Notes: generated by a model not told the origin, from the letters alone. Counted from the stretch's first letter, positions 1,085-20,000 are shown. The stretch: DNA of 20,000 bases from Chiloscyllium plagiosum (GCF_004010195.1 NC_057718.1:7670823-7690822); one strand, 5' to 3'. Translations and numbers: made by a program.

Positions 1085-1140
1085 CACTACTGCAGATGCT
1101 GGCGATCTGAAATGAAAACAGACCGCACATTCTGGAAATA
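1085..1140 (-). mobile_element. 3'-end fragment of the short hammerhead-bearing (Penelope-like) element
   Basis: 'actgcagatgctggcgatctgaaatgaaaacaga' matches the terminal motif of the copies at about 4325, 12682 and 18514; the core is not clearly preserved. Confidence 0.45.
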
Positions 1141-4225: not shown

Positions 4226-4309
4226 ATGCTGAGCAATCTGAAACCCTCTGATCAGAGGAGTGTGCGCTACCCACTGAGTAAAGATTCACATGCTGACTTC
4301 AGTCTCCCT

Positions 4310-4436
4310 CCGGCGAAAGTGAGGACTGCAGATGCTGGAGATCAGAGTCGAGAGTGTGGTGCTGGAAAAGCACAGCAGGTCAGACAGCATCCGAGGAGCA
4401 GGAGAATCAACATTTCGGGCAAAAGCCTTTCTATCT
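4310..4436 (-). mobile_element. Short non-autonomous hammerhead-bearing (Penelope-like) element
   Basis: Near-identical to 11334-11459 and 18509-18622; flanked by the exact 16-bp direct repeat TGACTTCAGTCTCCCT at 4294-4309 and 4437-4452. Confidence 0.8.
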
Positions 4437-4753
4437 TGACTTCAGTCTCCCTTAGTCAGAGGGAGAAACAGATTTCATCAGGAAATGCATACTCAAAATG
4501 ACAGAGTCAAGGACTCGCAGCCCTCACATACAGCAGTCTTGGGGAGGGGTATTTTTGAAGACACGATATGATGCATGCTGGGAGAATGATGAGGGTGACT
4601 CAGTTGTGTTTCAGAAATGGCGTGGGCCATGGATGAAATAGCGAAATGGAGAACTGGAGGATATGAACCCTCTTGAGGGCTGAACCATCTTAATGGTGCA
4701 GACAGTGAAAAATAATGCACACACAGCCCTTTGTCAGAACATCCCCACTTAAT

Positions 4754-4955
4754 CACAGAATTCCTAACGTGTGGGAAGAGACCATTCAGCCCATCGATTC
4801 TGCACCGACCCTCTAACGAGCATTCGACCCAGGCCCATTGCCCTACCCAAACCCTGTAGCACCATGTTCACCATGAGTAACCCACCCTGTCCTGCACATC
4901 CCTGGGTACTACTGGGACAATTTAGCATGGCCAATCCACCAAACCTGTGGATCTT
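4754..4955 (-). mobile_element. HE1-like V-SINE 3' half
   Basis: 'ccattcagcccatcga...ctgcacatccctgg...caatttagcatggccaatccacc' matches the corresponding part of the minus-strand copy at 14064-14359. Confidence 0.75.
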
Positions 4956-5384
4956 AATGACTGGGTCAGCCAACTGTCTTGGGATGACAGTGATTAGCAA
5001 CTGAGTTTCAGAGCAGACCAGGCCTTCAGCTACTCACACATTGCTGTGCCATTGTGGGAATACATAAAAAATATTCAGTTTTTTCCCTTGTCTCAGATCA
5101 ACAGTACGATCTGGGTTTCTAAGGTACCACAATCCTGAGTGTGCTGACTGCCACACTCACACCCGATTTGCAAGACTCAGTTGAGTTCTGAAAAAGGGCT
5201 ATTCTGTTTTGCTCTGCAGAAATGTTGCCAGGTTCTCTCGCAATTTACACTTTGTTCAAAATCCGAACAGAGTTCATATACATCGGCCCAAAGTGACATA
5301 CCTTCATAGACAGGCACCTGTTCCCTGCAAACAAAAGGAATCTGTCCAAGCCTCTCACCTATTTTCAGTTACCCAAGAGCTTTT

Positions 5385-5707
5385 CTTTTCCTTTATTCAT
5401 TCACAGGATGAGGGCATTGCTGGCTAGGCCAGCTTTTCCCTAATTGTCCAGAGGGCAGCTCAGAGGCAACCACATTAGCTGTGGGTCTGAAGTCACACAA
5501 AGGCCAGATAAGGATGGCAGTTTCCTTTCTAAGGGACATTAGTGAACCAGATGAGGTTATGGTCATCATTGGATTCTTAATTCCAGTTTGATGTTGAGTT
5601 CAGATTCCCCCATCTGCTGTGGTGGGATTCGAACCCATCTCCCCAGAACATTATTTGGGTTTGTGGATTAACAATCCAATGATAATGCCACTAGGCCATC
5701 ATCTCCC
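5385..5707 (-). mobile_element. tRNA-headed SINE 'family B', near full length
   Basis: Minus-strand A box TGGCCTAGTGG (5688-5698) and B box GGGTTCGAATCCC (5624-5636); the body 'catctggttcactaatgtcc...ggaaactgccatcctta' is shared with 9278-9622 and 16203-16463; A-rich tail. Confidence 0.8.
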
Positions 5708-6034
5708 ATGGTGGAGCTAATTGCTTCCTGTAACATTGTCTACAGTGAAGATTCAGCCAGTTGCAGTTGACTTGTCAACCAGTCCGCACCCTTTCATCCT
5801 GTAATATGAATTATTGTTTGAATCTTGGCGTTCTTATGTTTGTCCTGCTGAGGCAAAACCTTCTGACAGGGTGCCTCTCTTTCCCGCAAAGCTGTTTCCT
5901 TTGTTGAACAGTGATGTAGTGTCTAATTCCTCGGTCAGTCTAATTCCTGTATCCAAAAAAAAACACGAAGAAAGAAACTCTGGCATTGCGCCGGGCTCCC
6001 ACTACTCTCCCCTTTATCTCAGTCTCCTTCACCC

Positions 6035-6443
6035 CTTACCCCTCTGCACTTGCTGACCTACCTTAGTTCCTGGTCCAGTAACACCTCAAATTGTAAAATC
6101 CTCATCCAGCATTTTCAAATCTCTCCATGGACTCAACTCTCGCTCTTTCTAATCTCTTCCAATTCCGTAACCTTCTGAAATGGCTGCTTTTCTCCATCCC
6201 TCCCTTCTTACACGCAGCTGATTTTTAATCCCCCCCTCCCCCACCAGGTGGCCATGCCTTCAGCTCTGAAGTTTCCTCCATAGCCCCTTTTAAGGGGCAC
6301 CAGTCTGTTTTGACCATGTATCTTCCTATCCCCATATATGGATCGGTGTCAGTTTTTTTCCCTGATAAACAGTTGTGTGAAATAAATGCCTTGGGACCTT
6401 TTACTTTACAAAAGGTGCTATGTAAATGCAGATTGTTGTTGTA
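6035..6443 (+). mobile_element. L2 LINE 3' end
   Basis: Decayed 'gctgacctac...aaaatcctcatc...ttcaaatctctccatgg' and 'ggtggccatgccttcagct'; L2-type tail 'gccttgggac...aaaggtgctatgtaaatgcag' ending in (TTG)n. Confidence 0.72.
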
Positions 6444-6555
6444 GCAAAGAAATACCAGAGGACCTGCAGTTCTCATGTAATATACAATGCACAACGAGGT
6501 CTCACAGATATATGGAGAACGAGGACACGATCATAAGAATGTAGTAAGAAAGCTC

Positions 6556-7055
6556 TTGTGAAACTTGAAAGGGTTCAGAAAAGATTTACAAGGATGTTGT
6601 CAGGGTTGGAGGGTTTGAGCTATAGGGAGAGGCGGAACAGGCTGGAGCTGGTTTCCCTGGAGTGTCGGAGGCTGAGGGGTGACCTTACAGAGGTTTACAA
6701 AATCATGAGGGGCATGGATAAGATAAATAGATGTCTTTTCCCTGGGGTAGGGGAGTCCAGAACTAGAGGGCATAGATTTAGGATGAGAGGGGAAAGATAT
6801 AAAAGGGACCGAAGGGGCAATCTTTTTCACGCAGAGGGTGGTACGTGTATGGAATGAGCTGCCAGAGGGAGTCGTGGAGGCTGGTACAATTGCAACATTT
6901 AAAAGGCATCTGGATAGGATATGAATAGGAAAGTTTGGAGGGCTGTGGGCCGGGTGCTGGCAGGTGGGACTAGATTGGGTTGGGATATCTGGTTGGCATG
7001 GACGGGTTGGACCGAAGGGTCTGTTTCCATGCTGTACATCTCTATGACTCTATGT
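6556..7055 (+). mobile_element. CR1 (HER1-like) LINE 3' fragment
   Basis: KLERVQKRFTRM...LSYRER...RRLRGDLTEVYKIMRG...RTRGH is the CR1 ORF2 C-terminus, with a frameshift; the tail is 'ctctatgactctatg'. Confidence 0.95.
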
Positions 7056-7064
7056 GACTTTAAA

Positions 7065-7392
7065 TCGGAGCACATTGCTGTGTCGAGTTTGCCTTGCCAT
7101 TCAGCAAAGTTGTATTTTGATCTGATTTTGGTTTTAGCTCGAGCTTCCTGCCTGCCTCCATCACCCATGAGCCCCTTGTGGATGTAAAGTCTCTCTAACT
7201 CTGCCTTGACGATATTCGATCCCCCAGCCTCCACTGCTCGCTGGGAAAGAAAATTGCGAAAGAATTCCGAGAGAAGCCGAGTGGCCCTCTGAGAGAAAAG
7301 GCCTCTTCTCCTCTTCGTCTTAAATGGGCAAACTGCCCACCCTGCTCGCAGACTTAGCTACAAGATGGACCATCTCCCTAGCCTCTACCCTG
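7065..7392 (-). mobile_element. Older CR1 subfamily 3' fragment
   Basis: Minus-strand translation VEAGGSNIVKAELER and 'ttttctctcagaggg' match the CR1 C-terminal region; diverged. Confidence 0.65.
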
Positions 7393-7921
7393 GTAGTTCC
7401 CTTTGCATATGCTTCACCTGTCATTGAAACTCCGAGTAAACTCCTCCTGCAGGGTAAAGCCAGTGGGTCTAATCCACAAGATTCCGCCCCTCCCCCCCCC
7501 TCCCCACCTCCCATCAGAATGGGATTGAGGTGGGACTGTGATACTGCTTCCTGTTGAATTGTTTGCTAATGTTTATTGGTGAGGATTCAGTGCAATTATT
7601 TTGATCAAAATCTGGTCACGTTTGGTGTTAATTGGCAAATTCAGAGCCCAGTGACAGATTTTGCTTCAGACTGCATTAATAAACAGCGAGAATGCATCTT
7701 AAGAGACTCAAATCCACTGGTCACCTTGCTAAGACAGAAAGTTTACATTGCTGTCGAAAGCCTGTATGTCTGGGGGAACAGTCTTCCCGATAATGCATTT
7801 GACCAGCCTGCCTTATACCGTCCAATTAAACACCCAAATAAAAATCTAACAGGCTTATGAATAGAAATGCAATTCGCGCATCAGAGGGAGACCCGTTAAT
7901 ACTGGAGAATGAGGGTGGGCT

Positions 7922-8110
7922 CCCTTAGCTGTATGGGTGGGTGAGTGAGTGAGGTGGCTGGTTTGTAGCGTGGAGTGAAGCCAACGCGTGGGTTCAATTC
8001 CTGCACCGGCTGAGGTTATCATGAAGGATCTCAGATGTGGTGACCCTCAGGTTCGACTCGCTGCCCGCTACCTCTCCCGACTGAGAGAGCAGTTCTCCGA
8101 AACAATGACA
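7922..8110 (+). mobile_element. tRNA-headed SINE 'family C'
   Basis: B box 'gggttcaattcc'; shares 'gctggtttgt...gttcaattcctgcac...ggt(ga/ag)ccctcaggtt' with 11232-11538. Confidence 0.6.
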
Positions 8111-8555
8111 ATTATGCTGTTACTATTCGGGAATGAATGTACTGTCCCCCCCCACCATCCATTTTGAAGTGTAGGATTTGAGTCTGCCCTGTGTTCCACC
8201 ATGCAGTTTGGACTGCCATTTGAGCCTGACAGGATATGTCAGGTTGGAGTTGAGGGGTCACCTTTGACCTGCCAAGGGCACCTGACCCTGCTAGGAACAG
8301 CAAGTGAAACCCGACAAAGCCCAGCCGAAGACACTTCTGTTTCCGGCTCACATTGGTCCCCTCAAAGCAAACTTGGGAAGTTTTGTTCTGCTGGGGGTCA
8401 AGGGGCCCGGGCCACTGTCTGCCGACAACCCCTCCACTCTCCCCTCCTGCGACGGAGCGAAATATTGGTAACCGTCGTGCCATGGAGATGCACCTGTTAA
8501 GACCACTCCATAGGCCAGTGTGTCAACTGCACCTCACCGTCCAATCTCAATGGAC

Positions 8556-9040
8556 CATCCCAAAGGCATGGTACAGCCAATGAGGCACTCTCAAAGGGTG
8601 TCCAAGCATGTGACAGGGTCATACAGCATAGAAACAGTCCCTTCAGCCCACCATGCTCATGCTAGCCAACACACAACTCATCCTGTGATGTAGCAGCCAA
8701 CTTGCACAGCATGATCCCACAAGCGCCAGAGCGACATTGGCTGATTATTTTTTTTCCTGAGCAAAGTTACATGAAGAGTTAAATACCACCACCCCCACCC
8801 TCCCGCAGTTGCTTCTCTGTGACATACCCCACAAATGGGGTCATTTCGCCCCCACCAGAGAGGGGCAAAAGGTGGACGTTGAGGCGAGAAGGGGTTGGGG
8901 TGGGTGGGTGGGATCAGATTTAAGGACTCACCCACAAGACACTACCTCCAGCCCCCGGAGCGCCCCCTCAGTGGGAGCCTGTATCTCAGGAGTGGGGCAT
9001 TGCATGTCTGACTGTGTGGCGTGTGTGTTCACTCTCGGGT
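8556..9040 (-). mobile_element. DeuSINE-like remnant containing a small CR1 tail piece (about 8615-8680)
   Basis: 'tacagccaatgagg', 'gcagccaacttgcacagcatgatcccacaa' and 'ccaccagagagggg...acctcc...ccctcagt' resemble reversed SacSINE1-type sequence as recalled; the insert 'acagcatagaaacagtcccttcagccca' is a reversed CR1 tail. Confidence 0.5.
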
Positions 9041-9073
9041 CAGTCTGAACTACCAATCCTATCCCCTACATCA

Positions 9074-9731
9074 GGGTGGCATGGTGGCTCAGTGGTTAGC
9101 ACTGCTGCCTCACAGTGCTGGGGATGCATGTTCAAGTCTAGCCTCGGCAATTGTCTGTGTGGAGTTTGCACATTTTCTCCGTGTCTGCGTGGGTTTCCCC
9201 TGGGAGCTCTAGTTTCCTTCCATAATCCAAAGATGTGCAGGTTAGGTTGATAGGTCCAGTTATAAGTGGAAGTTTTAGGGGAGGCAATGGCCGAGTGGTG
9301 CCGGTGGTGGACTATTAATTCAGAGATCCAGGAAATCTTCTGAGGAACCTGCGTTTGAATCCTACCACAGCAGAAGGTGGAACTTGTATTCAGTAAATAT
9401 CTGAAATGCAGAGTCTAAGGATGGCCATGAATTGGGAAAACCCATCTGGTTCACTAATGTCCTTGAGGGAAGGAAACTGCCATCCTTACCTGGTCTGGGC
9501 CTACATGTGACTCTAGGCCCGCAGCAATATGGTTGACTTTTAACTGCCCTCTGGGCAATTAGGGATGGGTAATGAATGGTGCCTAGCCAGCGATACCCAC
9601 ATCTCATGAATGCATAAAAAAAATTGACCATGGGCGATGTAAAGTTAGAGATTCTGAGTGGGGCAGGGGAGAGATGGGTCAGTGTGGACTTGATGGGCTG
9701 AATGGCCTGCTTCCACACTGTAAGGATTCTA
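9074..9731 (+). mobile_element. HE1-like V-SINE split into 9074-9253 and 9623-9731 by a family-B SINE
   Basis: Head and V-domain are homologous to 1459-1632; the tail 'gtgtggacttgatgggctgaatggcctgcttccacactgtaaggattct' resumes after the insert. Confidence 0.85.
9278..9622 (+). mobile_element. tRNA-headed SINE 'family B'
   Basis: A-box-like TGGCCGAGTGG, B-box-like GTTTGAATCC, body shared with 5385-5707, ends 'catgaatgcataaaaaaa'. Confidence 0.82.
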
Positions 9732-10316
9732 AGTCACATGTCAAACTTCTTGACGATAGAAAGCAGGAATGTGCAAAGCCGCAGGGAATTCGTCACTGTA
9801 CGTTAGAGAGCTTTTTTTAAATGTCCTATTTTATTTGCTGACAATGCCAGCCCCTTGGGCACTGTTTCTTCATCTCTTTGATGCCACCCTTGTTAACCAA
9901 ATGTTGGTGAAACGTGCAGCTACGAAGCCTGATAAATCTTGTCAAATGTCACCTGCTCGACAGCTGAAAATGGGTAGTTTCTGGGCCAGGCTTTGGAGAA
10001 GGCAGCTTATTCTCTCTCACTTTAATAGTTTGCCCTTTTGCAGCGAACAAGAGTGTTATCTGCCCACCCACACTCATCTGCCTTGCTGACGTGGTGCCTC
10101 AGTGCCTCATTTGCACATGCTATTTTTGTGAAGGAAAGCAGAGAGCTATACGCCTGCTCCACCTTCCCTCACCCACCCCCCTAGTGAGTGGCTCAGTCAG
10201 TTCAGCAGTGGCCCTGACACAATGATCAGATCCACTGAACCTTTTACAGACAATCAAAAGCACCTCACAGCCACTGACATGTCAGACTCCTGTTGCTCCT
10301 GGCAGTAGCGGAGGCT

Positions 10317-10339
10317 ACACACACACACACACACACACA

Positions 10340-10400
<61 letters not shown>

Positions 10401-10641
10401 CTCTCACACATACACACACACACAGACTCACTCGCACAGATACACACACACAGACACAAACTCACACTCACACACAGACTCCCTCTCACACACAAACACA
10501 CACTCACATAGACACAAGACACAAACATGTGTGCGCACACACAAACTCACTCACACAGACTCACTCGCACAGACACAAACTCACACTCACACACAGACTC
10601 CCTCTCTCTCTCTCACACTCACACACACACGCACACACACA
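10317..10641. repeat. Compound microsatellite (AC)13(TC)28 followed by a cryptic CA-rich repeat
   Basis: (AC)n at 10317-10342, (TC)n at 10343-10398, then degenerate CA/CT repeats to about 10641. Confidence 0.95.
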
Positions 10642-11231
10642 TTGTGACTGTGCAATCTCCATACTCTCTCTCTTTACCTTCTGGGGCTGAGGAGCTGAGT
10701 TAAAAGGGAAATGTAATTGCATTTCAGCCATGCTGTTCTTAACTGCAGCCCAACTCAAGGGTCACTTAAACCTTCCCAAGGAGGGTGGCATTTTTTATAT
10801 ATTGTCACAGACAGGGAAAGTGAATATTTTGCTAGGAGTGAGTTTGGGAATCCTCTGTGGTTCAGTAGGAATTTCTGACCTGGAGCTTCTTCAAACTTCA
10901 CAGCACTCCCTCTTTGCCAGATGCTACCTGATGGAAAAAGTGTGGATGTAAAAGGTCGAAGGTGCGCACCTGCAGGTTTATTGGCCTCGTTGGGTTGCAC
11001 AGGCTGCAAAAGTGCATTTATTTTTATGTGTCTGTGTGAAAATGCAAAGGAACTTGGCCTTAACCTGATGGGCAATGTCCCCCCTGACTGAAAGGTCAGC
11101 CCCATCTCTTGCCCTACACCCCACTCACCTGCGCACACATTCAGAGTTCAGAGCATTCAGAGTTTCGTCATCTCGCACCTCCTGTGTTCCCCGAAAGTTG
11201 AAATAAAGACTGCACTTATGAAGCCCCTGTC

Positions 11232-11538
11232 ATAGCTTTCACCTTGCTGGTCCTTGGTTGGACAGCTGGTTTGTGGTGTACGGTTCAACATCAAAAGGGT
11301 TGTGTGTTCAATTCCTGCACTAGTTGAGATTAGGAGAAAGTGAGGATTGCAGTTGCTGGAGATCAGAGTCGAGAGTGTGGTGCTGGAAAAGCACAGCAGG
11401 TCAGGAAGCGTCGGAGGAGCAGGAAAATCAATGTTTCGGGCATAAGTGCTTCGTCAGAAACTGGTTGGGATTAGCACCGTCTCAACCTTTCCCTCGCCTG
11501 AGGCATGGTAGCCCTCAGGTTAAACCATCACCAGTCGT
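11232..11538 (+). mobile_element. tRNA-headed SINE 'family C' interrupted by a hammerhead-bearing element
   Basis: Homologous to 7922-8110 on both sides of the 11334-11459 insert. Confidence 0.65.
11334..11459 (-). mobile_element. Short hammerhead-bearing (Penelope-like) element
   Basis: Minus strand 11457->11430 reads CUGACGA-A-GCAC-UUAU-GCCC-GAAA-CAUU; 15-bp duplication ACTAGTTGAGATTAG (11319-11333) / ACTGGTTGGGATTAG (11460-11474). Confidence 0.82.
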
Positions 11539-12240
11539 ATAGAGTCACATAGTATCCAGGAGCAAATTACTGAATCTGTACTAAAAACAGAAATGCCAGA
11601 GGTCACAGTGGGTCAGGCAGCATTCATGGAGAGAGAGCGAGCAAGCTAATGTTTCGAGTGTAGATGACTGTTCATTGTGCAGCACAGAAACAGACCCTTC
11701 AGCCCAACTAGTCCATGCCGACCATAATCTCCGACTAAACTCGTCCCACCTGCCTGCGCTTGGCCCATATCCCACCAAACATTTCTTATTCATGTACTTA
11801 TCCAAATGTAATTTAAACATGTAACTGTATCTGCATTCAACACTTCCTCTGGAAGTTCATTCCACACACAAACCACTCTGTGTGTAAAACAAAATTGCCC
11901 CTCATGTCTTTTTTTAAATCTTCCTCCTCTCCCCTTAAAAATATGCCCCCTCATCTTGAAATCCCTCACCTTAGGGAAAAGATTTTCACCTTATCGATAC
12001 CCTTCATGATTTTATAAATCTCTATAAGGTCACCCCTCAACTTCCCACACTCCAGTGAAGGAAAGTCCCAGCCTCTCCTTATGACTTAAACCCTCCATTC
12101 CCAGCAACATCCCAGTAAGGCTTTTCTGAGCCCTCTCCATCTTAATAACACCCATCCTATAGCAGGGCGACCAGAGCTAGAGACAGTACTCCCCAGAAGA
12201 GGCCTCACCAACATCCTGTCCAACCTCAACATGACATCCC
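11539..12240 (-). mobile_element. CR1 LINE 3' fragment whose extreme tail is interrupted at about 11553-11676
   Basis: Minus-strand FKLHLDKYMNKKCLVGYGPSAGRWD; reversed tail pieces 'atagagtcacatag' (11539-11552) and 'gcagcacagaaacagacccttcagcccaac' (from 11679). Confidence 0.88.
11581..11676 (-). mobile_element. Short hammerhead-bearing element, second subfamily
   Basis: Shares 'ggtcaggcagcat'; the minus strand reads AUGA-A-CAGUC-AUCUA-CACUC-GAAA-CAUU (11675->11648). Confidence 0.65.
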
Positions 12241-12247
12241 TGGTGGG

Positions 12248-12460
12248 CAACCTTTCCACACCAACTCTGTGAAGTCCCCTTAGGATCTTCTACTTTTCCT
12301 TAAGGCCACCTCTCATTCTTTGATGTTCCAATGAGTGCAGGCTTCACCTATTTGACCTCTCCTTCAGACAGTGCCTCCAGATTTGACATTAGCTTATGGT
12401 ACCTTGTCTGGACTGTCTCTACAGCCAGTATCTCTTTCCTCAGAGAAATAATATAACCAG
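12248..12460 (-). mobile_element. Old CR1 ORF2 fragment
   Basis: 'ccttaaggccacctctcattctt...ttccaatgagt...cctatttgacctctcc...ctggactgtctct' reads on the minus strand as a decayed 'LETVQ...ERSNR...SLE..RMRGGL.E' CR1 segment. Confidence 0.55.
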
Positions 12461-12477
12461 GGAGCTGAGAGGTGGAA

Positions 12478-12570
12478 TCATAAAATTGTACAGCACAGGA
12501 AGAGGCCATTCACCCCATAGTGTTTGTACTAGCTCTTGAAAGAGCTATCCAATTTCAGCCCACTCCCCTT
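12478..12570 (-). mobile_element. CR1 3' tail fragment
   Basis: 'tcataaaattgtacagcacaggaagaggccattcacccca' is a reversed CR1 3' hairpin and tail. Confidence 0.55.
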
Positions 12571-12602
12571 GGTGCTGGTCTCTATAAGCTCTAAATAAAT
12601 CA

Positions 12603-12880
12603 AGGGGCTTTTCTCCTTGGAGAGAATTAGGGGTTACAGGGATAAGGCAGGAATGTGGACTTGACTGACATAACACAAAGAACTGCAGGTGCTGGAAATC
12701 TGACAGAAAGTCAGAAATTGCCAGAGAAACTCAGCAGGTCAAGCACCATCCGTGGGGAGAGAAAACGGAGTTAACGTTTTGAGTCCAGTGACCCTTCATC
12801 AGAAGATGGGCTCTTGAGGATTACCAGATGAGCCATGATCTCGTCGAATGGCGGAGTGGACTCGATGGGCTGAACGTCCT
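12603..12880 (+). mobile_element. CR1 3' UTR fragment split by a hammerhead-bearing element
   Basis: 'ggggttacagggataaggcaggaatgtgg' continues after the insert as 'gatgagccatgatctcgtcgaatggcggagtggactcgatgggctgaa'. Confidence 0.6.
12672..12803 (-). mobile_element. Short hammerhead-bearing element, third subfamily
   Basis: Minus strand 12802->12773 reads CUGAUGA-A-GGGUC-ACUG-GACUC-AAAA-CGUU; terminal motif 'actgcaggtgctggaaatctga'. Confidence 0.78.
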
Positions 12881-13480
12881 ACATCTTGTAGCCTTTGGAT
12901 TGGACTGTTCTGGTTTGACTTTCCCTGGCAATTTGTGGGATAGTAACAGCGTGATGGGCAGTGCCCTTGCATCTGAGCAAGGAACCCCTGGTGGGCCAGG
13001 AAGGTGGTGAAACGTTCTGGGCACATGTCAGTGGAAGCCATTAAAAGCGGGCGAGAGTGAGTCTTGGTCAACCATGCTGGGCACAGAGTGGCACCCTCTG
13101 GAGATACAGCCTGTGGTGACAATCTCTTGTGATTGGTCCCGGTGAAAGGAACTGCGGAAACGGGTAGAAGCAGCACTTTGCTGGTGTCATGGGTCTTTCT
13201 AGATGTGGGAAAGGAAAAATACAAGTTTGGTGCTCAGGATGTGGTAAATCGATCATGCGTTAAGTGGACACGTTTTTAGCAATGACTTTACAGCTACTAT
13301 AATGAGGTGACACTACTCTTGAACTGACACTGCATCCAGACTCATCTGAAGGATCTGAATTGGCATGTCACCACGAATTCTGTTAAGGACCTTGCTCAGC
13401 ACAGACGAGCTGCAACGTTTCCTTACATTGGTAAATGCTTTTCAGGTCTCCTGAGCTGTGCTAGGTGCTATACCAATGTA

Positions 13481-13842
13481 AATGGAGACATATAAGGTAA
13501 TCAGAGGGTTAGGTAGGGTGGACAGTGAGAGCCTTTTTCCTCTGTTGGTGATGGCGAGCACGAGGGGACATAGCTTTAAATTGAGGGGTGACAGATATAA
13601 GACAGATGTCAGAGGTAGTTTCTTTACTCAGAGAGTAGTAGGGGTGTGGAATGCCCTGCCTGCAATAGTAGTAGACTCACCAACTTTAAGGGCATTTAAA
13701 TGGTCATTAGATAAACATATAGAGGGGAATGGAAGAGTGTAGGTTAGATGCCCTTCAGATTGGTTTCACAGGACAGCACAACATCGAGGGCCGAAGGGCC
13801 TGTACTGCGCTGTAATGTTCTATTCGATGTTCTGTGTTCTAA
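13481..13842 (+). mobile_element. CR1 LINE 3' fragment, distinct subfamily
   Basis: ETYKVIRGLGRVD...TRGHSFKL...FFTQRVVGVWNALP...FKWSLD; tail 'gggccgaagggcctgtactgcgctgtaatgttct' with ATGTTCT-type repeats. Confidence 0.93.
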
Positions 13843-14359
13843 ATCTGGGATGGTGCTGTCATGTAACAAAATCCAGTCACTTTCAGACCGATACATGAAT
13901 GGGCAGGGAGCAGAGGGATACAGACCCTTAGGAAATAGTTGGCGGGTTTAGATAGAGGATCTGGATTGGTGTGTTGTGTGTGACAACACTGTGTCACAAC
14001 GGCTCTTCTTAATATTTTTTTAATTTAACCTATTTTTTGAATCATCTTGTTCAGGAACCAAATCATAGAATCCCTATAGTGTGAAAACAGGCCATTCATC
14101 CCACCTAGTCCACACTAATCTTCCAAAGAGAATCCCATCCAGACCAGTTCCCATATCCTGTCCCTGTAAGCATTACATTTTCCATGGCTAACACACCTAA
14201 CCTGCACATCCCTGAACACTGTGGGCAATTTAGCGTGGCAAATCTGCCTAACCTGCATATCACTGAACACGCAGACACTGGGTGTATGTGCAAACTCCAC
14301 ACAGACAGTCACCCAAGGCTGGCGTTGAACCTGGGCCCCTGGCACTGTGAGGTAGCAGT

Positions 14360-14544
14360 GGACAGTGTGGTGCTGGAATAGCAGAGCAGGTCAGGCAGCA
14401 TTCGAGGAGCAGGAAAATTGACGTTTCAGGCATAAGCCTTTCATTAGACATCAAGTCTCCTGCTCCTCAGATGCTGCCTGACCTGCTGTGCTTTTCCAGT
14501 ACTAAACTCTTGACTCTGACTCTCCAATCTTCAATTTCTCCTCG
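14360..14544. mobile_element. Head-to-head inverted dimer of the hammerhead-bearing element
   Basis: Arms of about 14364-14423 and 14448-14510 are reverse complements; 16-bp duplication ACTGTGAGGYAGCAGT at 14344-14359 and 14545-14560. Confidence 0.85.
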
Positions 14545-14560
14545 ACTGTGAGGCAGCAGT

Positions 14561-14986
14561 TGAACAGGCTGGGGCTGTTTTCCCTGGAATGTCAGAGGCT
14601 GAGGAGTGATCTTATAGAGGTTTATAAAATCATGAAGGGCATGGATAGGATAAAGAGACAAGGTCTTTTCCCTGGGGTAGGGGAGCCCAGAACTAGATGG
14701 CATAGGCTTAGGGTGAGAGGGGAGAGATATAAAGGATACCTAAGGGGCAATGTTTTCACGCAGAGGGTGATGTGTGCGTGTGTGTGCGCGCAATGAGCTG
14801 CCAGAGGAAGTAGTGGAGGCTGGTACAATTGCAGCATTTAAAAGGCATCTGGATGGGGATATGAATAGGAAGGGTTTGGAGGGATATGGGCCAAATGCTG
14901 GCAAACAGGACTAGTTGGGTTGGAATATCGGGTCGGCATGGATGAGTTGGATTGAAGGGTCTGTTTCCATGCTGTACAGCTCAATG
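14561..14986 (+). mobile_element. CR1 (HER1-like) LINE 3' fragment
   Basis: LNRLGLFSLECQRLRSDLIEVYKIMKG...FTQRV; same 3' UTR as 6556-7055. Confidence 0.94.
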
Positions 14987-15733
14987 CTGACCACTGAGCC
15001 ACCGTACTGCCCTAGACAGGACATGATACTGGATCTCCTGGGTCAGAGGTAGGGACAAGAGGTGCCACCCACCCTCCCCTCTACCTTGCTAAAGCTCATT
15101 GGTTGTAGCTGTACTATGTGACTCTTTCGGGGGTGATGTCAGTTGTATGTGGAAATATGTGAGTGAGGTATCGGTGGAAAGTGAGTGTTGTGTGGAGGGG
15201 GAGGGTGCTGGTGGGGAGAGGCTATGTGATCTTTCAGGTGGTCTGCCATTCTTTGTCTCCCCACCACCACCCACACTGTCATTCGGCAAATATCAACTCT
15301 CTTTGAGAGCAAGGGTCAGGACTGGCGAACAGAAACACAGGCAGCCTTCAGCCCACTGAATGAGCTCACACAAGCACCGAGCATCTGGGGACAGCTCACA
15401 TGAATGCCATCATCATTTCCTTCTGAATGCAGACGTTTTTTTTTCTTAAAAGGGACCGTGACAGACACATGAAAGCCTTGCAATACTGTGCAGCTATTTT
15501 TGATATAATTGTGGCTGCACTCAAGCCATCTCTGAGAGGAAGATGTACGTTTCTTTAATGCTTTTTACCGTCTGCAAAAAGGCTTTACACAGTGGAGTGC
15601 TTTCCAATTGTGTGTGTGTGTCTCACTGTTGTCAGGAGTGGTGACAGGCTAGTGGTATTATCGTTGAATTTTATTCCAGACACCCAACTAATGTTCTGGG
15701 GACCCAGCTTTGAATCCCCCCCCCCCCCCACCA

Positions 15734-16017
15734 AGGGCATAGGTCTAGGGTGAGAGGAGAAAGATTTAAAAGCGCCCTAAGGGGCAACTGTTTCACGCAG
15801 AGGGTGGTGCCTGTATGGAATGAGCTGCCAGAGGAAGTGGTGGAGGCTGGTACAATGACAACATTTAAAAGGCATCAGGATGGGTACATGAATAGGAAGG
15901 GTTTAGAGGGATATGGGCCAAATGCTGGCAAATGGGATTAGATTAGGTTGGGATATCTGGTCAGCATAGACGGGTTGGACTGAAGGGTCTGTTTCCGTGC
16001 TGTACATCTCTATGACT
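15734..16017 (+). mobile_element. CR1 (HER1-like) LINE 3' fragment
   Basis: RGNCFTQRVVPVWNELPEEVVEAGT...GYGPNAGKWD*; tail 'gctgtacatctctatgact'. Confidence 0.94.
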
Positions 16018-16020
16018 CCA

Positions 16021-16202
16021 GGAGACGGTAAGGACTGCAGATGTTGGAAGCAGGAATCAATAGATGTGAAGCTGCAAGAGCACAGCAGGTGAGACAGCAT
16101 CCAAGGAGCAGGAAAGTCAGCATTTCTGATAGAAACCCTTTGTCCTGCTCCTCGGATACTGTCTGACCTGCTGTGCTCTTCTAGCTTCACATCGACTGAC
16201 TC
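16021..16202. mobile_element. Head-to-head inverted dimer of the hammerhead-bearing element
   Basis: Arms 16061-16113 and 16143-16195 are reverse complements; terminal motif 'aggactgcagatgttgga' on the left. Confidence 0.85.
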
Positions 16203-17115
16203 TGAATCCCACCATGGCAGATGGTGGAATCTGAATTCAATAAAAACCTGGAATGAGAGTTCGACGATGACCCTGAATCCACTATCGATTGTTGGAAAAA
16301 CCCATCTGGTTCACTAATGTCCTTTCAGGAAAGAAACTACAATCCTTACCTGGTCTGGGCAACTTGTGACTCCAGACCCTCAGCAATGTGGTTGACTCTT
16401 AATTGCCCACTGGCCATTTAGGGATGGGCAATAAGTACTGGCCTGGCCAGTGACACCCTCACAGAGTCAGACAGCACGAAAACAGACCATTCATTCCAAC
16501 AAATCCAAGGTGGAGGACGGGAATAAAATTGTGGCTGTAAGATCTGCTCCTTTTTTGAGATGTTTTCAGTGTTGGAGGTGATTTCCTTGAATTCCAGGAG
16601 CAGCAATCACTGTTTTATAAGCTGTTGCATTGTTTTGGAACTTGGGAGAAAAGATCAAAACAATGGCACCTTTTAAAAGGGAGAAAGACAGACAAAAGGC
16701 AGCGACCACATGGTCAGTGAGGGAGAGATAGAAAGAAACCGACACTGATAATTGACACAGCAGTGAATCTGCACAGTTACTGCCTTTACTTGAGTTCATG
16801 TATCTCTGGACATTGGAATGCATCCAGGAAAAATTAACAAACAGCAAAATTCACAGCTGACATTGGAGGAACCTGTGTGGGACAGCTGACTGCACAGTTA
16901 CACACAAGTGCATAGTTTTTACCATGTAACCTTGCTGTAAGTCTACAGTAGTGAGTAGAGTGGGTTCTTTCTTGATTATATGTTTTATTGAGATCTGTCT
17001 CTTGATTAAATTTTTAAAATATAAACCATAAGTACTAAGTTAGGCTGGTGCACTGTTTTTTTAGACCAATAAGACAGTGCTATTATCTGAGTCTGTAGAT
17101 TGTGAAGGAGCAAAG

Positions 17116-18036
17116 ATGGCCTTTAGTAGAGTGATATGCTCTTCCTGTTGGATATGGGAGTTTTGGGAGCGTTTCCATGTTACTGATGATTATGTCTGCA
17201 GGAAGTGTCTTTGGTTGCCAATCCTATCAGATCACATGGATTGGTTGGAACAGTAGTTAGCAGCAATGAGGAATTTACAAGAATAAGAGGTGTGATGGAT
17301 GTCAGTTACAGGAAGGAAGAAAAGCTGCAGATACAGTCAGGTACGTGGGTTAACTCCAGGAAAGCTAGGAGGGGTAGGCAGGTAGTGTCCGAGACTCCTG
17401 TGGCTATCCCCAAACAAGTATGCCGCTTTGGAAAATGTAGGACCCTCAGGGAAATATAACACGAACAGCCAAGTTTCTGGTATTGGGACTGGCTCTAATC
17501 TAATGTGGGGTACATCGGGTTCCAAGCGATCGATTGTGATAGGGGTCTCTCTAGTCAGAAGCACAGACAGGCGTTTCTACAGCAAGCAACAAAAAATCAG
17601 AATGGTGTGTTGTTTCCCTGGTGCCAGGATCAAGGATGTTTCAGAGAGGGTGCAGAATGTTCTCAAAGGAGAGAGGGACCAGCAGGAGGTCACTGTACCT
17701 ATTGGAACTAACGACATAGGAAGGGAAGAGTTTGAAATTCTGAAGGGAGAATAATGAAAGTTAGGCAGGAATTTAAAAAGGAGATCCTCAAGGGTAGTAA
17801 TATCTGAATTACTCCTGGTACTATGAACTAGTGAGGGTAAGAATAGGAATATAGAGCAGATGAGGATCTGGCTGAGAAGCTGGTGCATGGGAGAAGGATT
17901 CACATTTTTGGATCATTGGAATTTCTTTTGGGGTAGAAGTGACCTGTACAAGAAGGACAGATTGCACCTAAATTGGAAGGGAACTAATATACTGGCAGGG
18001 AAATTTGCGAGAGCTGCTCGGGAGGATTTAAACTAG
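17116..18036 (+). pseudogene. CR1 ORF1 pseudogene: zinc finger/leucine zipper plus SGNH (GDSL) esterase
   Basis: MAFSRVICSSCWIW...YVCRKC (CxxC...CxxC); in-frame TAG at 17254; esterase blocks IVIG(V)S (17542-17550, normally GDS), CFPGA, IGTND (GTND at 17704-17715) and DRLH (17956-17967); ends EDLN* at 18034-18036. Confidence 0.9.
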
Positions 18037-18179
18037 TAAGGTGGGGAGGGGGAGAGGTGTAGAACTCAGGGAAATATTGGGAAAAGAGATCAATCTGAGA
18101 TTGGTACAGTTGAGAAAGAAGTGAGTTAAACTGTTAAGGTAGGCAGGAACAAAGCAGAGAACAAGGTAGGACTGATAAA

Positions 18180-20000
18180 TTAAACTGCATTTATTTCAAT
18201 GCAAGAGGCCGAACAGGGAAGGCAGATGAACTCAGGGCATAGTTAGGAACATGGGACTAGGGTATCATAGTAATTACAGAAACATGGCTCAGGGATGGGC
18301 AGGACTGGCAAGCTTAATGTTCCAGGATACAAATGCTACAGGAAGGACAGAAAGGGAAGCAAGAGAGGAGGGGCAGTGGCATTTTTGATAGGGGATAGCA
18401 TTACAGCTGTACTTAGTAGTATATTCCTGGGAATATATCCAGGGAAGTTATTTGGGTGGAACTGAAAAATAAGAAAGACATGATCACCTTACTGGGATTG
18501 TATTGTAGGCAGGACTGCAGATGCTGGAGTTTAGAGTTGAGAGTGTGGTGCTGGAAAAGCACAGCAGGTCAGGCAGCATCCGAGGAGTAGGAAAATCGAC
18601 GTTTTGGGCAAAAGCCCTTTGTCTGGAATTGTATTATAGTCAGCAGGAAATTGAGAAACAAATTTGGAAGGAGATTTTACTTACCTGTAAGAATAGTAGG
18701 GTGGTTATGGTAGGGGATTTTAACTTTCCAAACATAGACGAGGACTGCCATAGTGTTAAAGGTTTAGATGGAGAAAATGTATTAAGTATGTACAAGAAAA
18801 TTTTCTGATTCAATATATGGATGTAAATACTAGAGAAGATGCAAAACTTGACCTACTCTTGGGAAATAAGGCAGGGCAGGTGACTGAGGTGTCAGTGGGG
18901 GAGCACTTTGGGGCCAGCGACCGTAATTCTATTAGTTTTAAAATAGTGATGGAACAGGATAGACCAGATCTAAAATTTGAAGTTCTAAATTGGTGAAAGG
19001 CCAATCTTGATGCTATTAGGCAAGATCTTTCAAAAGCTGATTGGAGGCAGATGTTCGCAGGTAAAGGGGCGACTGGAAAATGAGAAACCTTCAAAAATGA
19101 GATAATGAGTGTCCAGAGAAAGTATATTCCTGCTAGGGTGAAAGGGAAGGCTGGTAGGTATAGGGAATGCTGGATGACTAGAGAAATTGAAGTTATGGTT
19201 AAGAAAAAGAAGGAAACATATGTCAGATATAGACAGGAGAAGTCAAGTGAATGCTTAGAAGAGTATAAAGGCACTAGGAGTGTACTAAAGAGAGAAATCA
19301 GGAGGGCAAAAAGGGAACATGAGATAGCTTTGGCAAATAGGATTAAGGAGAATCCAAAGGAATTTTATAAATACATTAAGGGCAAAAGGGTAACTAGGGA
19401 TTGAATAGGGCTCCTCAACAATCAACGAGGCAGCTTATATTTGGAGCATCAGGAGATGGGGGAGATTCTAAACGAGCATTTTGCATCAGTATTTACTGTG
19501 GAAAAGGACAAGGAAGATATAGAATGTGGGGAAATAGATGGTGACATCTTGAAAATTTTCAGATTATAGATGAGGAAGTACTGGATGTCTTGAAACGGTT
19601 AAAGGTGGATTAATCCCCAGGACCTGATCAGGTGTACCCTAGAACTTTGTGGGAAGCTAGGGAAGTGATTGCTGGGCCTCTTGCTGAGATATTTGTATCA
19701 TCGATAGTCACAGGTGAGGTGCCGGAAGACTGGAGGTTGGCTAACGTGGTGTTACTGTTTTAGAAAGGTGGTATGGACAAGCCAGGGAACCATAGACCAG
19801 TGAGGCTGACATCAGTGGTGGGCAAGTTGTTGGAGGAAATGCTGAGGAAAGGATGTACATGTATTTGGAAAGGCAAGGACTGATTAGGGATAGTCAACAT
19901 GGCTTTGTGCATGGGAAATCATGTCTCACAAACTTGATTGAGTTTTTTGAAGAAGTAACAAAGAGGATTGATGAGGGCAGAGCAGTAGATGTGATCTATA
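18180..20000 (+). pseudogene. CR1 ORF2 pseudogene: APE endonuclease and N-terminal reverse transcriptase
   Basis: Motifs YFNARG, ITETW, MVGDFNFPNID, LDLLL, ASD(R), SPGPDQVYPR, PEDWRLANV, RPVRLTSVVGKLLE and QHGFVHGKSCLTNLIEFFEEVTKRIDEGRAVDVIY; several stops, frameshifts and one insertion. Confidence 0.94.
18509..18622 (-). mobile_element. Short hammerhead-bearing element inserted in CR1 ORF2
   Basis: Minus strand reads GGGC-UUUU-GCCC-AAAA-CGUC (18617->18598); 17-bp duplication CTGGGATTGTATTGTAG (18492-18508) / CTGGAATTGTATTATAG (18623-18639). Confidence 0.85.

Follow-up and report, generated by a model that had tools for sequence, protein, structure and literature searches.

Minimal hammerhead ribozymes (min-HHRs) have been described in the Penelope-like elements (PLEs) of metazoans; the part of the original report available to us covers fish (Xena, Poseidon, Neptune), coelacanth, Xenopus and reptiles, and gives the in-vitro activity of these motifs as low (Cervera & De la Pena 2014, PMC4209133). 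PLE insertions show hallmarks that, in the accessible portion of Craig et al. (2021, PMC8557442), include an inverted 5′-truncated copy and a tail of 30-40 bp at one end. In a PLE of Anolis, both target strands are cleaved and extended and reverse transcription (RT) starts at two internal sites, while hammerhead cleavage is dispensable for insertion in vitro (Frangieh et al. 2024, PMC11167929). Animal non-LTR retrozymes are described, in the sections available, as small non-coding repeats with type I hammerheads (Cervera & De la Pena 2020, PMC7229834; 10.64898/2026.07.22.740005), and the accessible part of the preprint, which includes one chondrichthyan, argues that they derive from the pLTRs of PLEs (Li, Clavereau & Pollet 2026, 10.64898/2026.07.22.740005).

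We analysed the repeats of one 20,000-nt stretch of DNA, referred to as the window. An original prediction had placed related copies of a single mobile family with a hammerhead-like core at eight sites. A repeat search joined the copies at 4312, 11333, 14323 and 18501 (114 nt) in one group and added those at 16065 (80 nt), 11604 and 12730 (28 nt) and 1089 (27 nt). Together with BLAST using a family A unit and a family B copy, it confirmed that all eight places hold related sequence. They split into two families, however, with five insertions of family A and three fragments of the older family B. The features are as follows.

1089..1140, minus strand: 3′-terminal stub of family B without hammerhead; 1089-1122 matches positions 91-124 of the B copy (85%).
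4294..4309 and 4437-4452, no strand: target-site duplication (TSD) of the 4310 copy, identical at 16/16 positions.
4310..4436 (BLAST 4312-4431), minus strand: single family A unit, unit positions 9-128 (94%); truncated at the 5′ end inside the CUGAUGA box, reading AUAGAA-AGGC(UUUU)GCCC-GAAA-UG-UU; 3′ end with tail.
11319-11333 and 11460-11474: TSD of the 11334 copy, 15 nt, two mismatches.
11334..11459 (BLAST to the unit, 11333-11460), minus strand: single family A unit with entire motif region and tail.
11430..11457, minus strand: decayed minimal hammerhead, CUGACGA-A-GCAC(UUAU)GCCC-GAAA-CA-UU, with broken stem II and 16.2 G>A.
11573..11676 (BLAST 11573-11673), minus strand: older B-like unit with decayed motif, 69% to the B copy.
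12672..12804, minus strand: unit of family B; a B copy from elsewhere matches it at 82%.
12773..12802, minus strand: minimal hammerhead of family B, CUGAUGA-A-GGGUC(ACUG)GACUC-AAAA-CG-UU; its lesion G12>A lies at a former CpG.
14344-14359 and 14545-14560: TSD of the 14360-14544 pair, 16 nt, one mismatch, within a SINE copy.
14360..14447 (BLAST 14357-14447), minus strand: left arm of a head-to-head family A pair, unit positions 4-94, ending at the tail-less 3′ site.
14420..14447, minus strand: decayed minimal hammerhead, CUAAUGA-A-AGGC(UUAU)GCCU-GAAA-CG-UC, with G5>A.
14448..14544 (BLAST 14448-14533), plus strand: right arm of the same family A pair, from unit position 27 to the tailed 3′ end and therefore without hammerhead.
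16021..16140, minus strand: older arm of family A, matching unit positions 10-128 at 75%, motif region heavily decayed.
16140..16215, plus strand: head-to-head family A partner of the 16021 arm, unit positions 34-108.
18492-18508 and 18623-18639: TSD of the 18509 copy, 17 nt, two mismatches.
18509..18622 (BLAST 18511-18628), minus strand: single family A unit, truncated at the 5′ end inside the CUGAUGA box; motif ACAAA-GGGC(UUUU)GCCC-AAAA-CG-UC, with G12>A.

TSDs of 15-17 bp thus flank four of the five family A insertions; none was found for the 16021-16215 pair or for the family B unit at 12672..12804. The earlier statement that terminal inverted repeats are absent does not hold for 14360-14544 and 16021-16215, because both are head-to-head inverted pairs of units. 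The 18509..18622 copy sits in a decayed LINE-like element, and the B-like unit at 11573..11676 adjoins a LINE 3′ end (junction 11676/11677).

On the minus strand, the window repeats have the common layout CUGANGA-A-hairpin-GAAA-CG-UH. The unit is built as a minimal type I hammerhead with a 4-bp helix I, CUGANGA, one unpaired A, a helix II of 4-5 bp and GAAA. Helix III is replaced by the palindrome A-CG-U, followed by the cleavage-site base and about 62 or 97 nt of conserved sequence. All four marks of PMC4209133 were found, and the assignment to the Penelope type of minimal hammerhead is supported. Re-reading the four minus-strand motif strings given in the original prediction (12802, 11457, 14447 and 18617) showed every letter to be correct, and the same is true of its lesions (G5>A, G12>A at a CpG, broken stem II). 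Its view of the genomic copies as damaged also stands, as all window copies carry lesions, mostly from CpG decay.

A strict minimal-hammerhead descriptor gave no match on either strand of the window, where no copy has an intact core. The same descriptor matched 25 times in 276,036 nt of related loci, compared with 0 matches in 40 dinucleotide shuffles. Through these 25 descriptor-intact copies, the CUGANGA and GAAA boxes, U16.1 and H17 are seen to be kept at the family level, though no window copy has all of them intact; among the 63 copies scored outside it, just 10 have an intact core. An extra nucleotide after A9, before G10.1, is present in 25/25 descriptor matches and is an A in 62/63 scored copies. 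The G10.1-C11.1 pair closing helix II reads G...C in families A, B and C. Positions 15.2/16.2 are palindromic (A-CG-U in families A and B, A-GC-U in family C) and there is no helix III, so that two copies can pair. In 28/63 scored copies the CG at these positions has decayed to CA or TG.

Between the families, helix I changes from AUUC/GAAU (A, L047 type) to AGUU/AACU (B) and CAC/GUG (C), and helix II from GGGC/GCCC (A) to GGGUC/GACCC (B) and GGAG/CUCC (C). By eye, and as a non-statistical count over three families, the changes are compensatory in three of four helix I pairs and two of four helix II pairs. The 15.2/16.2 pair turns from CG to GC with the palindrome retained. Judged from this covariation between families, the hammerhead fold is under selection in the master elements. 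The motif presumably acts on PLE transcripts as a dimeric, protein-assisted self-cleaving element. In the window, the genomic copies are neutral relics that bear the lesions of CpG decay.

The covariance-model scan proposed earlier was silent: Rfam hammerhead models matched nothing in the window at E <= 10, and four loci whose motifs pass the descriptor as intact were likewise without a match. This result says little, because the models do not cover the form without helix III. As monomers, four intact loci that were folded gave energies no better than shuffles (z from +0.33 to -1.59), and only the L048 type had a hammerhead-compatible minimum-energy fold. The window copies were also considered as pol III SINEs; this identity was rejected, with no tRNA, 5S or 7SL match at E <= 10 and no poly-A at any of them.

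The insertion anatomy was examined in 88 arms. Their 3′ ends fall at unit positions 90-99 in 18 arms, at position 117 or beyond in 52 and elsewhere in 18. There are thus two alternative 3′ ends, at about positions 94 and 128, and the 34 nt between them correspond to the PLE 'tail'. The 3′ end of the unit is real, as downstream sequence is common to just one pair among 51 arms. Of the seventeen head-to-head inverted pairs detected, 15 combine a short-ended arm with a long-ended one, leaving the tail on a single arm. 5′ truncation is heavy, and the window insertions agree in 5′ truncation, TSDs, inverted pairs and two 3′ ends with published PLE hallmarks. No same-orientation arms lie less than about 300 nt apart among the 88 arms in 167 kb, so the tandem arrays known from retrozymes are absent. 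We found no direct pLTR-ORF-pLTR tandem in the sample of 51 tailed arms; family C locus L063 gave a hint of a partial tandem. A search of the sampled loci for the full-length 5′ end of the element did not reach it. The 5′ ends are uneven: in the tail-selected loci and the window, 58/68 arms reach unit position 10 or less; 5 of these extend at least 100 nt further upstream and 53 end close to the 5′ boundary of the hammerhead.

The proposed search for an autonomous element with RT and GIY-YIG domains ending in the same sequence was positive, in longer copies in which the unit is contiguous with the ORF. Over 600-1400 nt upstream of the unit, four loci (L017, L028, L022, L010) are 72-80% identical to one another, and their translation shows GIY-YIG and RT motifs. 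With Pfam, the decayed copies of the genome gave GIY-YIG at E 1.5e-4 and RVT_1 at E 1.6e-4, both under the Pfam cut-offs. A 388-aa frame in L046 is 41% identical to residues 506-841 of an 889-aa protein (E 6.4e-69), a homologue with RVT_1 above the Pfam cut-off and GIY-YIG at E 4.9e-4. L047 has an open frame of 893 aa, 52% identical to the same protein over residues 178-886. The order in the single ORF is RT, then a C-terminal GIY-YIG endonuclease. Motif and tail lie 3′ of the ORF in 7/10 ORF-bearing loci of the L046/L047 kind, about 160 nt past its end in L047 and L048, and the unit is downstream in the correct orientation in 9/11 loci selected by endonuclease. Since the same sequence ends ORF-bearing PLE copies, the repeats are not free-standing mini-elements, and the earlier idea of a separate, tiny non-autonomous element is not supported. 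Neither is the retrozyme reading, given the lack of any contiguous head-to-tail array among the 88 arms. The short copies resemble products of ORF-bearing PLEs that were truncated or ran off.

We conclude that the window repeats are, very probably, 3′-terminal modules of PLEs with decayed minimal hammerheads. The observation is real and its kind already known, namely the hammerhead motif of PLEs, of which this is a new member. The family is far above chance. A search of the genome itself gave 2327 first-look candidates; of the 40 scored, 39 were other than the window's own copy, and these were 91-96% identical. Bystander density was 17 arms in 78 kb, about 0.2 arms per kb in a small sample. 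A rough extrapolation yields several hundred thousand copies in the genome.

By analogy with the in-vitro work on the Anolis PLE, the PLE protein would nick both target strands, and RT would begin at two internal RNA sites just 3′ of the hammerhead and proceed towards the RNA 5′ end. Most products would end at or near the hammerhead 5′ edge, giving dead-on-arrival units some 94 to 128 nt long, either single or as inverted pairs. We tentatively suggest, as a possibility with the odds against it, that the short units are run-off cDNAs of PLE transcripts starting exactly at the 5′ edge of helix I, rather than random truncations. This edge reads TCATTC in family A and TCAGTT in family B, which we take to fit an initiator-type consensus. 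Priming 94-128 nt downstream on such unit-length transcripts would yield SINE-like mini-insertions, and head-to-head pairs would arise when both target strands prime. If true, this would account for the extrapolated copy number and put the ribozyme at the extreme 5′ end of the PLE RNA.

That the short units form a non-autonomous family of their own, SINE-like or retrozyme-like, which borrows PLE machinery, and are more than mere truncations, is unlikely. Such a family would fit the very high bystander density and the uneven 5′ ends, with 53/58 arms stopping near the hammerhead edge, but run-off where ordinary PLE transcripts begin predicts a discrete 5′ end equally well. A UUUU loop occurs in 24/39 short and paired arms against 2/18 extended copies, a comparison that is confounded because the short loci were selected for their similarity to a copy with UUUU, and the extended ones were reached from a copy with UUAU. 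Moreover, both classes contain the same loop variants, and retrozyme-like tandems are absent at the spacing given above.

An incidental likeness, with hairpin and flanks serving the PLE as a promoter or for protein binding and not as a ribozyme, is improbable. A putative resemblance of the motif 5′ edge in families A and B to an initiator element would suit it, as would the weak thermodynamic signal and the silent Rfam models. The literature adds low activity (PMC4209133, available part) and insertion without cleavage (PMC11167929). Against it, three otherwise differing families keep CUGANGA, GAAA, U16.1 and H17 while their helices I and II change in compensation, and the motif bears the published family marks, namely an added nucleotide behind A9, the G10.1-C11.1 pair and a palindrome at 15.2/16.2. 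In addition, the Anolis PLE motif cleaves with its protein, and C3/G8 mutants act as a hammerhead predicts (PMC11167929). For the foldback copies, an identity as MITE-like DNA transposons or as hairpin genes of the microRNA type is hardly credible: the 14360-14544 pair does fold at -96.4 kcal/mol (z = -10.1) and both foldbacks have Rfam miRNA-family matches, but these are well under gathering scores (best 46.8 vs 80 bits), the two arms differ in the way specific to PLEs, a tail being present on one alone, single arms flanked by TSDs of their own make up most copies, the TSDs measure 15-17 bp and not one fixed short length, and PLE ORF copies end in the same sequence.

For annotation, the units should be masked as PLE fragments and not as SINEs, MITEs or microRNA hairpins; the density found in our small sample indicates what share of a large vertebrate genome PLE tail fragments can make up. 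Reading raw sequence without tools can spot a helix-III-less hammerhead that Rfam models miss even when it is intact. The two-ended head-to-head anatomy is a natural counterpart of two-strand priming and two internal RT starts in vitro.

Compared with retrozymes as described in the accessible sources, the units share the small non-coding format and the type I hammerhead, but their motif has no helix III, and in place of head-to-tail arrays giving rise to circular RNAs there is no contiguous tandem among the 88 arms. The Anolis PLE differs in having its ORF start codon inside the hammerhead (PMC11167929), whereas here the motif appears on the 3′ side of the ORF and a frame opening at the hammerhead AUG closes after 18 codons. 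The direct pLTR tandems of canonical EN+ PLEs were not encountered among the tailed arms of the sample. Heavy 5′ truncation and an inverted 5′-truncated partner are shared with canonical EN+ PLEs (PMC8557442, available part), as is a single-end tail, of 34 nt here and 30-40 bp there. Also shared are the order of RT and C-terminal GIY-YIG and 3′ ends a few tens of nt past the hammerhead, beside an AC-rich stretch (PMC8557442, available part; PMC11167929). From the PLE min-HHRs, as far as the available text of PMC4209133 describes them, the motif differs in its helix II of 4-5 bp, against 7-8 bp in the Schistosoma families, and in its host, a large vertebrate genome with shark-like repeats, which is absent from the list in that text. 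In both, helix III is replaced by the palindromic A-CG-U, an unpaired nucleotide lies between A9 and G10.1, the G10.1-C11.1 pair is present and helix I has 4 bp. Both also form consensus families with covariation and occur mainly as single copies in truncated PLEs, with opposite-strand pairs about 100 bp or more apart.

The window resembles repeat-rich vertebrate DNA, and its source assembly spans 3.56 Gb in 101,977 contigs. A repeat search within the window found related sequence at every place where the original prediction had put a mobile element copy: a 114-nt family comprised 4312, 11333, 14323 and 18501, an 80-nt family brought in 16065, a 28-nt core brought in 11604 and 12730, and a 27-nt core brought in 1089. 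The four hammerhead-like strings cited in that prediction were likewise exact when the sequence was read again. Its account of the two longer copies missed that each is folded back on itself. Inverted repeats at 81% pair 14357-14424 with 14448-14515 and 16041-16113 with 16143-16215, and both copies are therefore head-to-head pairs. An own-genome search with the 114-nt copy at 18509 gave 2327 first-look candidates, of which 40 were scored, and the 39 non-window copies were 91–96% identical, versus 80–86% for the 40 scored among 3229 candidates obtained with the copy at 12672. Thus, what had been described as a single family holds together as a set of related sequences but falls into two families, a younger A and an older B. 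We refer to each copy of the ~128-nt unit, single or paired, as an arm. The flanks contained 17 bystander arms in 78,271 nt (~0.2 per kb); extrapolated genome-wide, this small sample gives a rough figure of several hundred thousand arms.

The family A consensus reads AUUC/CUGAUGA-A-GGGC(UUUU or UUAU)GCCC-GAAA-CG-UC/GAUU, with GAAU as the final part in the type of L047, the Penelope-like copy with the longest open reading frame (ORF). Our strict descriptor of a hammerhead without helix III consisted of CUGANGA, 0–1 extra nucleotides, a helix of 4–8 bp with a loop of 3–8 nt, GAAA, complementary positions 15.2/16.2, and U then H. It matched neither strand of the window nor any of 200 window shuffles. 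Applied to 276,036 nt of related loci, the same descriptor gave 25 matches, all with the extra nucleotide, whereas 40 shuffles that preserved the dinucleotide content of these loci gave none. The parsed motifs represent three families.

Motifs of the three families
Family A: helix I AUUC / GAUU (GAAU in L047 type); CUGAUGA-A-GGGC...GCCC-GAAA; CG-UC
Family B: helix I AGUU / AACU; CUGAAGA-A-GGGUC(ACUG)GACCC-GAAA; CG-UU
Family C (one copy, locus L063): helix I CAC / GUG; CUGAUGA-A-GGAG(CGUCA)CUCC-GAAA; GC-UA

Between families, changes on both sides affected helix I at three of its four pairs and helix II at two of four, the 15.2/16.2 pair went from CG to GC and was palindromic throughout, and G10.1–C11.1 was invariant. 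As a MAFFT alignment misplaced helix II, this covariation was taken straight from the three parsed motifs, without a formal statistic. The family C motif (L063:2390-2700) is followed by a different tail of ~70 nt, and a ~70-nt sequence upstream of it is repeated about 240 nt on, which may be a partial tandem resembling a pseudo-LTR (pLTR).

At E ≤ 10, an Rfam covariance search of the window matched the foldbacks to miRNA-type models below threshold but did not return a hammerhead, and the same search returned no hammerhead in four loci with descriptor-intact motifs. Since these loci were also unmatched, the negative result is uninformative on the presence of the motif; it shows that the Rfam hammerhead models do not cover the form lacking helix III. 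Monomer folds of four intact motifs were no more stable than shuffles (z +0.33 to -1.59), and helices I and II both appeared in the minimum-energy fold of the type of L048, another ORF-bearing locus, only. In dimer co-folding, an intact motif swapped stem II instead of forming the A-CG-U helix. Low in vitro activity of such motifs is described in the available text of PMC4209133, and the Anolis element is cleaved only with protein present and inserts independently of cleavage (PMC11167929).

We scored lesions in 63 copies spanning the whole motif region; the register was fixed, and a few family B-like copies were mis-scored as a result. Lesions were commonest at CpGs, in line with the decay that had been proposed.

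Motif features in 63 scored copies
CUGANGA retained: 42/63
4-bp helix II retained: 46/63
GAAA retained: 30/63
G12>A: 19/63
CG retained at 15.2/16.2: 26/63
CA or TG at 15.2/16.2: 28/63
All features intact: 10/63

Window copies, with motif lesion and target-site duplication (TSD)
4310 (family A): truncated inside the CUGAUGA box; TSD 16/16 nt identical
11334 (family A): helix II broken, G16.2>A; TSD 15 nt, two mismatches
14360-14544 (family A, pair): G5>A in the motif at 14447; TSD 16 nt, one mismatch
16021 (family A, pair): badly decayed
18509 (family A): truncated inside the CUGAUGA box; TSD 17 nt, two mismatches
12802 (family B): G12>A
11581 (family B): badly decayed

On the CUGAUGA-bearing strand, the 3′ end was fixed and the 5′ end variable across copies, and several copies ran on upstream into a common C-rich sequence. 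Four loci (L017, L028, L022 and L010) retained 72–80% identity over 600–1400 nt 5′ of the unit, and translation of these stretches revealed reverse-transcriptase (RT) motifs and a CxxC...GIY-YIG-type block. On decayed frames, Pfam placed both GIY-YIG (E 1.5e-4, 22.4 bits, cut-off 22.6) and RVT_1 (E 1.6e-4, 21.9 bits, cut-off 29.6) below threshold, and other pieces and frames of L028, L043 and L046 had no significant match. A 388-aa frame of L046 matched an 889-aa database protein with E 6.4e-69 (41% over 340 residues, its residues 506-841). In this homologue, residues 375-563 score above cut-off for RVT_1, and residues 793-826 match GIY-YIG (E 4.9e-4). Used as a query against the C. plagiosum genome, it yielded 162,553 first-look candidates, among them L047, whose stop-free 893-aa frame is 52% identical to it over residues 178-886. 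The loci found in this way were 95–98% mutually identical over 1.8–2.3 kb with differing 5′ truncation points, except for the more divergent L050 (about 77%). An autonomous GIY-YIG+RT Penelope element ending in the unit sequence, for which the original prediction had proposed to look, was found: the motif and conserved downstream sequence lay 3′ of the ORF in seven of ten protein-found loci, including L047 and L048, where they stood ~160 nt past the ORF end. When loci were picked by the endonuclease region alone, nine of eleven carried a correctly oriented unit downstream; one had no unit and one was not readable in full. According to PMC8557442 and PMC11167929, endonuclease-containing Penelope-like elements (PLEs) are defined by a single ORF in which an RT precedes a C-terminal GIY-YIG.

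Within the window, tblastn with the PLE protein detected no PLE coding remnants at E ≤ 0.01. At the start of the L047 copy, a ~120-nt piece of the N-terminal coding region is repeated in tandem four to five times (L047:3500-4150, minus strand); this piece is single in other PLE copies, which reach further upstream with varying truncation points. The element 5′ end and an upstream pLTR were not reached among the PLE copies examined, as L047 starts in the duplication and the others are truncated. Adjoining the L028 copy, a second, different PLE-like ORF (L045:3207-4401, minus strand) ends in a GIY-YIG-like stretch and has RT motifs, RFYGLPKVHKP...PLRPIVS among them, indicating several PLE lineages in this genome. 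The PLE loci L021, L034, L044, L047, L050, L051 and L056 are broken by runs of N that add up to as much as ~1.4 kb in a locus, and the 645-aa 'open frame' in L034 is inflated by such a run.

A census in which a 128-nt unit was searched against the window and 44 loci (167,222 nt) gave 88 arms. Their 3′ ends fell at unit positions 90-99 in 18 arms, at 117 or beyond in 52 and elsewhere in 18, so that the two main ends are separated by 34 nt. The first of them directly follows CCAGCACCACAC. The long end is a true terminus, since sequence beyond it was common to only one pair among 51 arms. The 88 arms formed 17 head-to-head pairs, and 15 of these combined a short end on one arm with a long end on the other. 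No same-orientation arms stood closer than about 300 nt in the 167,222 nt. Of the Penelope/retrozyme-like reading first offered, the Penelope part is upheld by the unit lying downstream of an RT and GIY-YIG ORF, but tandem arrays of the retrozyme kind were absent among the 88 arms.

TSDs flanked four of the five family A insertions in the window and were undetectable for older window copies. Two PLE tails in the window adjoin a LINE-type repeat at its 3′ end (16014-16021 and 11676-11677), and the same LINE tail family occupies 2657-2994, 6727-7063, 14551-14986 and 15694-16031. PLEs are reported to favour microsatellite-like targets. A SINE-like repeat beginning GGTGGCATGGTGGCTCAGTGG has copies at 1458-1760, 9073-9730 and 14268-14360; one of its copies hosts the PLE pair 14360-14544, with the TSD inside the SINE, and is also interrupted by a LINE tail (14547-14984). 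The insertion at 18509 sits in a LINE-like element (17060-20000) that has decayed and is riddled with stops, in which endonuclease- and RT-like motifs were seen by eye and for which Pfam on five frames gave no significant match. The window also contains a long compound CA/CT microsatellite (10315-10650) with degenerate CACA-rich repeats of ~100 nt.

The short units may be truncated PLE copies or a lineage of their own. Among tail-selected loci and the window, 58 of 68 arms reached unit position 10 or less, and only five of the 58 extended at least 100 nt upstream, so that 5′ ends cluster where helix I begins and are not evenly spread. The TSD allowed the first element base to be mapped in seven single copies, a small number for a test of a sharp start, and placed it between -8 and +3 when counted from C3. 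The loop variants (UUUU/UUAU) did not cleanly separate short from ORF-linked copies in what was a biased sample. The helix I edge is TCATTC in family A and TCAGTT in family B, both of which we take to fit an initiator-type consensus. The Drosophila virilis element has an internal LINE-like promoter with an initiator and a downstream element, and its transcripts start 5′ of a short intron, as described in PMC2377424. With this precedent and the initiator-like edge, it is plausible that the short units would be run-off products from a transcript start.

PLEs are reported from all vertebrate lineages, one cartilaginous fish included, in the available part of PMC4350176, and a 2026 preprint, in the portion available, ties vertebrate non-LTR retrozymes, one chondrichthyan included, to PLE pLTRs (10.64898/2026.07.22.740005). 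No published description of this particular family was found in the literature searched on Penelope-like hammerheads, shark repeats and pLTR transcription starts. The original prediction thus correctly recognised an element whose kind is already known, in a host genome that is new for it. In the accessible text of PMC4209133, Cervera and De la Pena name four features that mark PLE minimal hammerheads as non-chance, and the C. plagiosum motifs display all four; most PLE motifs there are single in truncated PLEs, with some close pairs on opposite strands. The anatomy of the arms matches the PLE insertion signature outlined in the available text of PMC8557442, namely high 5′ truncation, an adjacent inverted 5′-truncated copy, and a 30–40-bp tail often at one end only. 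The Anolis PLE protein cuts and extends both target strands in vitro, and reverse transcription begins inside an AC-rich stem-loop, from two neighbouring internal sites that lie some 85–92 nt beyond the hammerhead cut site (PMC11167929). The two C. plagiosum ends lie 62–63 and 93–97 nt beyond the predicted cut site.
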